DNA of 64,000 bases from Malacoraja senta. Taxonomy: Eukaryota. The stretch is taken from contig CM075988.1 of NCBI GenBank assembly GCA_038087875.1, positions 22,942,001-23,006,000 on the forward strand, given 5' to 3'. The notes beneath the pieces are model-generated. The model made no database searches. It was not told the DNA's origin and worked only from the letters and a program-made list of their open reading frames with translations. Shown here in pieces: positions 2,689-13,458 of the stretch. Numbering within the stretch: the first letter of the stretch is position 1; each line of letters opens with the position of its first letter. Made by a program: the position numbers and the translations under genes.

Positions 2689-2968
2689 ATGGAAGCTAAT
2701 GGGTCGTGGCTACATTTGGAGAGAATTTGTCTATCTCACGATCCCTTTTCGGGGGTTGGCATATGAACTGATGTCAAATCACACCGCTGGGCAACACATT
2801 AGTAACACGCTTGATGTGCTCAAATCAATATTGGTTTCTGTTGGTAAAGACCTGCATGAAGAACTTGGCAGTGAAGCCTACGCCAAAATACATGATGAGC
2901 TGGTGTCAATCCACAAAAACATTAAACAGTACCGCCGCCGTGATGAGACCCGGCACCCCCACCTTTAA
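2689..2968 (+). CDS. Terminal coding exon (exon 4) of apolipoprotein-like gene copy A; upstream exons lie left of the window
   Basis: Pyrimidine tract + AG ending at 2688; phase-2 entry matches the exon-3 donor phase; encodes WKLMGRGYIWREF...ISNTLDVLKSILVSVGKDLHEELGSEAYAKIHDELVSIHKNIKQY with amphipathic helical periodicity; ATTAAA at 3167 and 3239. Confidence 0.72.
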
Positions 2969-3276
2969 CCACCCAATCGCGGTCAACACCAAGAAAATTG
3001 AAGAAAGGGCGAGGAGAGATGCTCTTTGCGGAGACCCTACGAGAAATATACGAGCTGCTGTTATTGATGAACTGTTTCTCCACAGGGTGGGGGTGGGGGA
3101 GTTTTGGGTTGAGACCCTTCTTCAGACATTATGCCTTGTAGAACTTTATTCTAATTGAAAATTACTATTAAACAATGCGTGTTTGATCTAAACTCTGTAT
3201 TGTCTTTTCCATATTTCATCAATTCAAAATTAATTTTCATTAAAAATGTTACTAATGATGGTTCAGCTTCTACTGC

Positions 3277-10600: not shown

Positions 10601-13458
10601 TCTCTGGGTGCTCTGGTTTCATCCCACATTCCAAAAATGTACAGGTGTTTGGGCGCTTCGTCATTTTATTTAAGACGCTTGGTCGATTTAATTGCAAATC
10701 GTCCCTGGTGGGTGTGGGATAGTGTTAGTGTATGGGGATCGCTGGTTGGCCTATGGGCCGAAGTGCCTGTTTCCATGCTGTATAACTCAACTAAACTAAG
10801 GCGTGTTTGTGTGTCCTTTCTTAATGTCCAGTCATGTGGACAAAAAATACGAAAGGCAACATTTCCTGCTCTTGAAATTGAAATGTTACTTTAGTTTATT
10901 GTTGTCACGTGTACTGAGGTAAGGTTACAGTGAAAAGCTTTGTTTTGTACAAGATTTCATGTACAAGCAACTTTTGGATCAGTTGTGAACTAGAGTCTGG
11001 AGACTGGAGGTGTGGCAACAGTTGTACCCAAGTCTAGGAATGGATCTTAGGTGTATCTGAGTCCTGGAACATTCAAGATAAAATTGAGACACAGAATGAC
11101 CATCTCACTGTTACAAACATGCTTTGACCTTTTGTGTGTGTTCCACAAGCCCAGAGATTAGAACATGACCAGGCATTTTACAAAGTAGGGTTTCGTCAAA
11201 ATTGACATTTATTCCTTGCTTATATTGCTTGGAAAACTGTAAAATCAGGTGGGGGAATTCAACTGTGTAGGAAGGAACTGCAGATGCTGGTTTAAACCAA
11301 AGTTAGACAAAAAAAGCTGGAGTAAGTCAGCGGCTCGGAGAGAAGGAATGGGTGACGTTTCGGGTCAAGACCTTTCTTCAGACTGAGTTACGCCAACTTT
11401 TTGTGACAATTTTCCGCAAATGTTTGCTGGACACAAACACTGAAAAATGTTTATCCTTGACTGCAGCCTGACGCACGCTAGGAAAGATGGAATTTACACT
11501 GGTTGGCCATCTCTTATCAGATGTGGGAGATAACGTCCAGCTATTAAACAGCTGGGATCTGAGCCCCAGACACAAGACCGGCAGAGAGTCAATAGCAAGC
11601 AGGTAAGAGGGTTTTTTCTACTGAAGAAGGGTTTCGGCCCGAAACGTTGCCTATTTCCTTCGCTCCATAGATGCTGCTGCACCCGCTGAGTTTCTCCAGC
11701 ACTTTTGTCTACCTTCGATTTTCCAGCATCTGCATTTCCTTCTTAAACAAAGTTTTGTTTCTGCTTGAGGCTGCACGGGAAGAAGACTGGTAAAGTAGGA
11801 ACTTTTTGTTCAGTGATATTTCTGATATTCAGCACCCCAAATGTCCTGATTACCAGAATATTTCTCAAACTGAGTGTGCTGGGTGTCACCAGGTCACATT
11901 GACCGGGACACACTGGGACCAGTCCCAGACAAGGTTGAGTCAGTTCGTCCAAGTGGGTGCAATGATAAGGACTCTTCTAACATCGTCAACAACTCTGAGA
12001 AAGATAGAGAACACACAGAGGTTTTCCATTCCTGGCTGTTGCAAAGATCCCGAGGTCTGATAAGTTTGCAGATCCTGAAGCTAATGTTGAAGATACTGGG
12101 AAGGCACAGTGGCAAAGCGACTGCCTTACAGCGCCCGACACCCTGGTTCAGGTGACTACGGGTGCTGTCTGTACGGAGTTTGTACGTTCTCCCTGTGACC
12201 GTGTGGGTTTTTTCCGGGTGTTCCGGTTTCCAAAGACGTGCGAGGTTGTATGTTAATTGGCTTCGGTAAATTGTCGCTAATGTGGAGGATAGAACTAGTG
12301 TTTGGGTGATTGTTGGTCAGCACGGACTCCGTGGGCCGAAAGGTCTGTTTTGCACATGCCGACTAAGATGTCCCATCTACACTAGTCCCACCAGCCTGCC
12401 TTTGCCCCATATCCCTCTAAACCTTTCCTATCCATGTAACTGTCTAAATGTTGTTAAAGTACCTGCTTCAACTACCTCCTCTGGCTGTTCATTCCATAAA
12501 CCTACCTCCTTTAATGTAAAAAATGATGCCCTTCTGCTTTCCAGTAAATGTTCCCGTCTCACCTTAAACCTATGTCCTCTGGTTCTTCATTCCCCTACCC
12601 TGGATAAAAGGCTTTGCATTTACGCTATCTATTCCCCTCATGATGAAGGACAAAGGCTGAGTTTTTAAAGACAGGTATTAGGAAGATTGAAGGGAAAGGT
12701 TGTCGAAGCTTCAATGTGTTGAGAAATCAATATGGGATAAGTTAAAAGGTGAGTGGTAAAGAGAACATTAAAAATGATAATATGAGGAAATGAACCCAAG
12801 GAAAGTGGAAAAAATGGTTTATTGTTTGTCCGAGTCTTAGAGCATCGCTAATTACTCGCGCTCGACTCCAGAAATAAACTTCAAGATTTAAATATCAACC
12901 TTTTTGGTAATGAATTGTGTACTCAATGAACGGTAATGTTTATATCCATTGATTTCTGCAGCCTTTACAGAGAGTTGAGGACCTGACACCATCATGAAGA
13001 TATTCACTGTTGCTTTGGTGCTCTTGCTGGTTACAGGTACAGAAGACAAACTCTTCAAACTAACCTAAACACAATCATGAAAAAGCACACGGAAAAATGT
13101 GAACGCACTAAATCGCCAGTATTGGTTGCCCTCATTGTCTTTCAATTTGTAGCATCTATTGATGAACCGAGCAGTTTAGTTCAGTTTAGAGATACAGCGC
13201 GGAAACAGGGCCTTCAGCCCACCTTGTCCGCACCAACCAGCGATCCCCGCACATTAATACTATCCTACACACATCAGGGACAATTTTACATTCGTTCCAA
13301 GCGAATTAACAATTGGTGGCACATCAAGGTGCGGGGGGGCAGGTAACTGCTCATCTGATGGTGAGAGAGAGAGAGAGCTCAAGTATTGCCTGAGCAACAG
13401 GAAGAACTGCCTTGTTTTCTTCAGACCCTCCTTGGTCTTCTTCACAACCTCCTTGTTC
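7630..13458. repeat. Tandem segmental duplication, unit 2 (lacks the equivalent of ~2660..4703; truncated by the gap)
   Basis: Offset is 7629 at the start and 6125 after the junction ttaatgt|cca|gtcatg at ~10827-10830; the CA-rich tract is expanded. Confidence 0.97.
12994..13036 (+). CDS. Apolipoprotein-like copy C exon 2 (signal peptide); remaining exons lost in or beyond the gap
   Basis: Identical to 6869..6911 with the same splice sites. Confidence 0.82.

Follow-up and report, generated by a model that had tools for sequence, protein, structure and literature searches.

A 64-kb stretch of the Malacoraja senta chromosome CM075988.1 (G000:C12:22942001-23006000; here called the window, with positions counted from its first nucleotide) carries one end of a tandem array of a spliced, four-exon gene that is present in the assembly in at least 28 copies. 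The gene product is predicted to be a secreted, helical protein of 140 residues. Judged by sequence comparison, this short protein descends, with its C-terminus cut short, from an unnamed shark-and-ray subfamily of 193-231 aa, and an origin by duplication and C-terminal truncation of a shark/ray ApoA-IV-like gene is very probable. The copies appear to have been diversified by positive selection, a reading held with good if lesser confidence.

The coding sequence is divided among exons of 43, 154, and 280 nt (6869-6911, 7463-7616, and 2689-2968, all on the forward strand) with phases 1 and 2, canonical splice sites, and AG/GT boundaries, which join into a 477-nt frame encoding 158 aa, as the first-pass annotation of the window had derived it. 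That model combined exons 2 and 3 of one copy (B) with exon 4 of another (A); the exons were correct, but the composite spans two different units because copy B lacks exon 4. The exon 3 of copy A, predicted to lie just outside the window, was found there and ends 13 nt to the left of position 1. Copy A is complete on chromosome C12; its 158-aa product is intact and departs from the composite at residues 25, 27, and 63. Its exons 1-3 lie outside the window at G000:C12:22939088-22941987, its intron 3 occupies 1-2688, and its exon 4, read from phase 2 to a TAA stop (2689-2968), is most variable among paralogs in its first ~100 nt. Candidate poly(A) signals follow, with ATTAAA at 3167-3172 and a second at 3239-3244.

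Copy B (5417-7616) also lies on the forward strand and opens with the TATA-linked non-coding exon 1 that had been claimed, having a TATA-like TATTAAA at 5417, a probable start near 5447, and a donor after 5477. Exon 2 (6837-6911, acceptor at 6837 or 6846) carries its ATG at 6869 and 43 coding nucleotides with a signal-peptide pattern, and exon 3 (7463-7616, 154 nt, phase 1-2) is followed by a jump from intron 3 into the next unit at 10827/10831. This deletion junction (10827-10831) marks the loss of ~2.0 kb including exon 4, the unit equivalents of 2660-4705, and the coding capacity left is for a product of only ~66-72 aa. Copy C, on the same strand, has a TATA-like box and exon 1 at 11542-11602 and exon 2 at 12962-13036 (ATG 12994), and is cut by an assembly gap of Ns at 13459-13658. 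The gap is likely the home of the array carried by two unplaced contigs, C1649 and C3286; the tail of C1649 and the sequence to the right of the gap overlap only in repeats. Open frames in all 15 four-exon copies with a normal exon 3 acceptor, spliced RNA contigs, and RefSeq homologues show that the gene is not a chance arrangement.

Genome-wide DNA searches returned 25 matches to exon 3 and 20 to exon 4, all on C12, C1649, and C3286, and mapping gave 28 head-to-tail units, with three on C12, 12 on C1649, and 13 on C3286 (both unplaced contigs taken whole). The amplification that the window had implied is thus real in the assembly, with 28 units in place of the three or more first suggested. 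Fifteen units are intact, four have a shortened exon 3, six lack exon 4 in the manner of copy B, and three are interrupted by the gap or by the end of a contig. The intact units encode nine distinct proteins of 158-160 aa that fall into five main types (A and T1-T4). In the shortened units, a 93-nt deletion takes the exon 3 acceptor and leaves a new AG in frame, and the predicted product has 150 aa and no predicted cleavage site. Whole units measure 6.1-9.6 kb, the last unit on C1649 excepted. Nearest-neighbor units differ by 0.05-1.4% and one unit is chimeric, joining a T1 exon 3 to a T2 exon 4; together these features suggest recent unequal crossing-over. Unit order is unlike between C1649 and C3286, and these contigs may be alternative haplotypes, so a cautious count is 12-16 units per haplotype. 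Two evidently genomic runs lend weak support to real amplification, as contig depth in repeat-free gene bins exceeds that of the flank several-fold to tens-fold: 208-1020 versus 28-43 in X5, and 37-51 versus 1-2 in X6. These values are short-read contig depths and not copy numbers.

Evidence of splicing comes from relatives. A repeat-free stretch around exon 3 matched contigs at 83-87% identity, which belong to relatives and are not transcripts of this genome itself, and the expected exon 2-3 junction (6911>7463) was present in contigs of three of the four runs examined, from two studies. In X1 (RNA, study P1) and in X2 and X3 (probably RNA, one sample, study P2), contigs begin at the exon 3 acceptor and run into the end of exon 2, and X4 had no contig on exon 3. 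The other expected junction, exon 1-2 (5477>6837 or 6846), was not bridged, nor was exon 3-4. Reads placed over the whole gene, where repeats swamp the signal, gave no splice joints, and no run contained half of the query words, the window share of X1-X4 being only 0.05. Depth in X2 was 899 in the exon versus 6 in the intron and ~950-1600 over exon 4 and the 3′ UTR. That sample contains two variants, and in its variant table, read by hand, all 11 codons listed as differing are nonsynonymous and none is a stop.

The apolipoprotein-family ancestry proposed from the exon layout is borne out by gene structure, a chain of profile homology, and linkage. Exons of 43, 154, and 280-286 nt, the hallmark layout, recur in 15 of 15 intact copies, and an adjacent ApoA-IV-like gene has exons of 43 and 151 nt. 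The suggested ApoA-I/A-II/C/E placement was right at the level of the family; the closest solved relative is ApoA-IV, and not ApoA-II or ApoC. An exon 4 profile built from the five short types and a long paralog had ApoA-IV as its best PDB match (E=0.0088) and 10 matches among 1.84 billion representatives, eight named or clustered as sharks, rays, or skates, one without an organism, and one a beetle repeat protein (P0005) that was dropped as spurious. The short-form profile reached the long forms at E values of 3.7e-22 to 4e-29. A ten-member subfamily profile found 13 proteins, and all 11 with names are elasmobranch, in keeping with the uncharacterized cartilaginous-fish lineage that had been suspected; absence outside elasmobranchs is weak evidence because the protein search was word-indexed. 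Against PDB, this profile matched human ApoA-IV (E=6.6e-14) and ApoA-I (E=0.005). PF01442 was matched by six of the ten members (best 5e-9) and PF04711 weakly by three (best 0.0042).

No apolipoprotein model in Pfam matched the short-form exons or protein P0002, and the curated PF01442 cut-off of 90 bits was missed by short forms, which had no match, and by long form P0011 at 26.5 bits. Exon 4 alone had no match in the word-index search, exon 4 and P0002 had no usable match in the ESM Atlas (best 0.76), the exon 4 model had no Foldseek match at E<=0.001, and the subfamily profile matched exon 4 of the neighboring gene weakly (probability 22.8%). Two other affiliations were rejected. ApoE is absent from the 18 PDB matches at E<=1, the neighboring genes are POU2AF2 and POU2AF1, and a CLPTM1-family match occurs solely on a different contig. 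ApoA-II and ApoC (PF04711, PF04691), which have a very short exon 4, fit poorly with an exon 4 encoding 92-94 aa, and PF01442 fits more members at lower E values.

The short form shares with ApoA-IV the best solved-structure match of both profiles, the exon sizes and phases of the neighboring gene, and an all-helical prediction, but differs in its ~140 mature residues, its lack of regular proline-punctuated 22-mers and of a direct Pfam match, and its many copies, which diverge at omega >1. As the first-pass annotation had observed, the mature protein is short and lacks such repeats, and its proline positions show no period of 22. Because the direct Pfam and 22-mer tests failed, the short form is classed as a derived variant rather than as ApoA-IV itself. 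It is short because ~50 C-terminal residues of a longer parent, which keeps PF01442-like repeats, have been lost.

C1649 ends with the putative parent gene (G000:C1649:115024-126075), whose exon sizes are those of the short units; no second gene of this kind turned up in the genome. Exon 4 of the putative parent is frameshifted near 125941, within a G-run, either genuinely or through an assembly error, and the part past the frameshift has a weak PF01442 match (E=0.0024). Exon 4 of this gene is 82-85% identical to that of Amblyraja LOC116991403. DNA identity between parent and short units is 77% across 222 nt spanning the promoter and exon 1, and 85% around exon 2; exons 3-4 have no DNA match. 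Other elasmobranch long forms include Amblyraja radiata LOC116991403, a Mobula hypostoma protein named "apolipoprotein E-like", a Heptranchias protein named "A-I-like", and Scyliorhinus LOC119954284, and RefSeq names across the subfamily are inconsistent (ApoE-like, A-I-like, A-IV-like, or uncharacterized). Long forms have the signal and N-terminal motifs of the short forms, with 27-38% identity between short forms and the batoid long forms, but are 193-231 aa long, carry 4-6 N-glycosylation motifs in the two counted, and occur as one copy in the assembly. Short forms end ~50 residues before them and form their own clade (100/100).

In an unrooted tree of 22 rows, the six short rows fall on one side of a single branch (100/100), the origin point of the clade not being fixed because that branch is long and the tree has no outgroup. 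Rhinoraja longicauda LOC144608743, an uncharacterized protein of 160 aa, has the same truncation and groups with the short forms at 35-47% identity, and sits on a long branch. Among the proteins matched, skates alone had the short form. In Leucoraja erinacea, one gene model joins an ApoA-IV exon with part of the short gene. A 420-aa Pristiophorus model (P0003) consists of two apolipoprotein-like proteins in succession, each starting with a signal peptide; annotation has probably merged two neighboring genes. The available portion of the one survey found lists, for cartilaginous fish, only ApoA-I and A-IV (PMC6854765), and neither the subfamily nor the array was found described in the literature searched, which covered few subscription journals.

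An ApoA-IV-like gene of 240-242 aa (G000:C12:22929450-22934873; L031, L032, and L078), outside the canonical cluster, shares its strand with copy A and ends ~4.3 kb upstream of it. It matches PF01442 at 116-117 bits, has ApoA-IV as its best PDB match (5e-30), and has exons of 43 and 151 nt in phases 1/2. On the other side, an exon of POU2AF2 apparently begins at the right edge of the window (~63967-64000; also L056:1-312 and L056:7918-8364), and POU2AF1 lies ~120 kb beyond, with exons in L067 and L068. The ZPR1-linked apolipoprotein cluster is on the same chromosome, 7.3 Mb from the array. In human, the POU2AF and ZPR1-linked apolipoprotein groups both lie in 11q23, and by this comparison the array locus resembles a second cluster that arose from the ApoA-I/A-IV cluster.

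Several other features were seen along the way. Beside ZPR1 stand seven tandem ApoA-IV-like genes (G000:C12:15590411-15647170; L071-L077 and L084) with a very long exon 4 and frames of 336-346 aa, and past them is a divergent apolipoprotein-like exon with Asn-rich inserts on the opposite strand (15656251-15656724). PF01442 matches on contigs C3 and C4171 look like simple repeats and were set aside. In the window, a LINE-type element (50734-54079) carries an 881-aa reverse transcriptase frame on the forward strand (PF00078, E=1e-41). The adjoining 270-aa frame on the reverse strand has no Pfam match and is taken, on motifs, to be endonuclease-like, an arrangement that would point to a 5′ inversion. 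At 44595-45800 lies a degraded relative in inverted orientation.

Divergence among the paralogs is concentrated in the mature coding region. With one representative per type (n=5; A and T1-T4), in a family where copies recombine, the first 24 residues are invariant, and 21-33% of columns vary in exons 3-4 versus 5-11% in adjoining introns. Variable columns number 7 of 286 in the promoter and exon 1, 1 of 75 in exon 2, and 7 of 111 in the 3′ UTR, versus 32 of 154 in exon 3 against 26 of 548 in intron 2 (p=7e-9) and 90 of 277 in exon 4 against 44 of 394 in the end of intron 3 (last 400 nt; p=1e-11). The rise and fall of divergence coincide with exon borders, and variability is highest over the opening 100 nt of exon 4. 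Nine of the 10 pairwise comparisons have dN above dS (two at p<0.05, uncorrected), and a single-ratio codon model of the mature region gives omega ~2.0 (likelihood ratio test against 1, p=0.002), which remains ~2 without gap-rich columns (p=0.016) and significant without T4 (p=0.004). Exon 4 has omega ~2.5-3 (p=0.0007), and exon 3 alone ~1.3, which is not significant (p=0.54). Across ~174 substitutions, no stop has arisen where ~8 would be expected without constraint, and exon gaps are all of 3 nt. Gene conversion alone can lower intron divergence, and homogenization of introns is occurring, since synonymous divergence in exons (0.06-0.24) is above that of intron 2 (~0.02). Coding parts change several times faster than introns, and selection in skates that favors diverse surfaces for binding lipids or microbes is a likely reason. 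Exons that outrun their introns beneath an invariant signal peptide are known from venom and defense gene families rather than from lipid carriers.

The hydrophobic 18 residues at the N-terminus are conserved across the subfamily. Three helices are predicted in the model of exon 4 (pLDDT 64, pTM 0.35), several 11-mers have moments of 0.4-0.7, computed without a control, and a long-form model was discarded at pLDDT 38.9. The net charge of the short proteins, -1 to -13, sets them apart from typical cationic antimicrobial peptides and argues against simple cationic killing.

An array at a gap edge and on unplaced contigs, with some C1649 and C3286 units only 0.05-0.13% apart and damage in 10 of 28 units, could be a decaying array or an assembly artefact, in which the haplotigs of a few pseudogenes were collapsed or duplicated. 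Nine distinct intact proteins in five main types with no stops, contigs that differ in unit order, a short orthologue annotated in Rhinoraja, and, weakly, gene-bin depth above the flank in X5 and X6 make this very unlikely. The units could also encode an ordinary lipid-transport apolipoprotein amplified for dosage, with divergence arising from relaxed constraint and intron-homogenizing conversion; the sevenfold amplification of ApoA-IV genes on the same chromosome offers a parallel, and exon synonymous divergence above that of intron 2 indicates that homogenization is under way. Relaxed constraint, however, should leave omega at or below 1, whereas ~2 was measured, divergence tracks exon borders, and the repeats that build the parent's lipid-binding belt are the very part lost, so that dosage is a distinctly improbable explanation.

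With origin and selection left unchanged, the driver could instead be reproduction or development, the copies being egg, seminal, oviducal, or yolk-sac lipid-binding proteins under sexual selection or conflict. Omega above 1 is common in secreted reproductive proteins, and both the neutral to acidic charge and the high depth in one RNA sample would suit such a role. A precedent is found in teleost afp4a/b, which the available text describes as short apolipoprotein-like tandem genes acting in the yolk syncytial layer (PMC4081606). Here the variation is between paralogs of a single genome whose promoters are near-identical, a situation that suits a recognition repertoire at least as well, and the reproductive driver is considered rather unlikely. 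The same teleost genes, short, four-exon, head-to-tail, and apolipoprotein-like in that description, also raise the idea of a convergent type-IV-antifreeze-like protein (PMC4081606). The afp4a/b genes, however, are two near-identical copies in the same account, antifreeze amplification would predict uniform copies and not diverging ones, and an antifreeze function is considered highly improbable. No AFP4 sequence was among the matches of any search.

The explanation favored here is a role in innate defense, in which the copies would bind microbial or parasite membranes, and its chances are put at slightly below even. In a duplicate of the long gene, the final ~50 residues and most N-glycosylation sites would have disappeared, after which unequal crossing-over would have multiplied units of 6-9.5 kb, yielding chimeric and deleted ones; the damage in 10 of 28 units counts against this account. 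Exchange between copies would keep the promoter, exon 1, signal peptide, and introns near-identical, and selection would hold the mature region apart, chiefly at residues ~66-100. The proteins would be co-expressed from one promoter type, would differ in what each recognizes, and would either travel with lipoproteins or place amphipathic helices in foreign membranes. Precedent for such a role is circumstantial. Available passages report that nurse shark ApoA-IV changes after immunization (PMC9207270), and antibacterial fish ApoA-I appears in titles cited by PMC7579410.

These results add a further shark-and-ray subfamily together with its truncated skate offshoot, the latter largely absent from the chromosome-level assembly. 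The array is a set of natural variants that differ mainly in one segment and can be used to test the idea that fish apolipoproteins act as immune effectors. More tentatively, a truncated gene of ApoA-IV descent may have become, in skates, a repertoire of secreted, germline-encoded proteins that serve in recognition and are driven by an arms race with blood or mucosal pathogens, in which a constant promoter and signal module would be joined to a hypervariable helical segment and reshuffled by unequal crossing-over. If so, this would be, to our knowledge, the first venom- or defensin-style accelerated multigene family in the ApoA/C/E superfamily.
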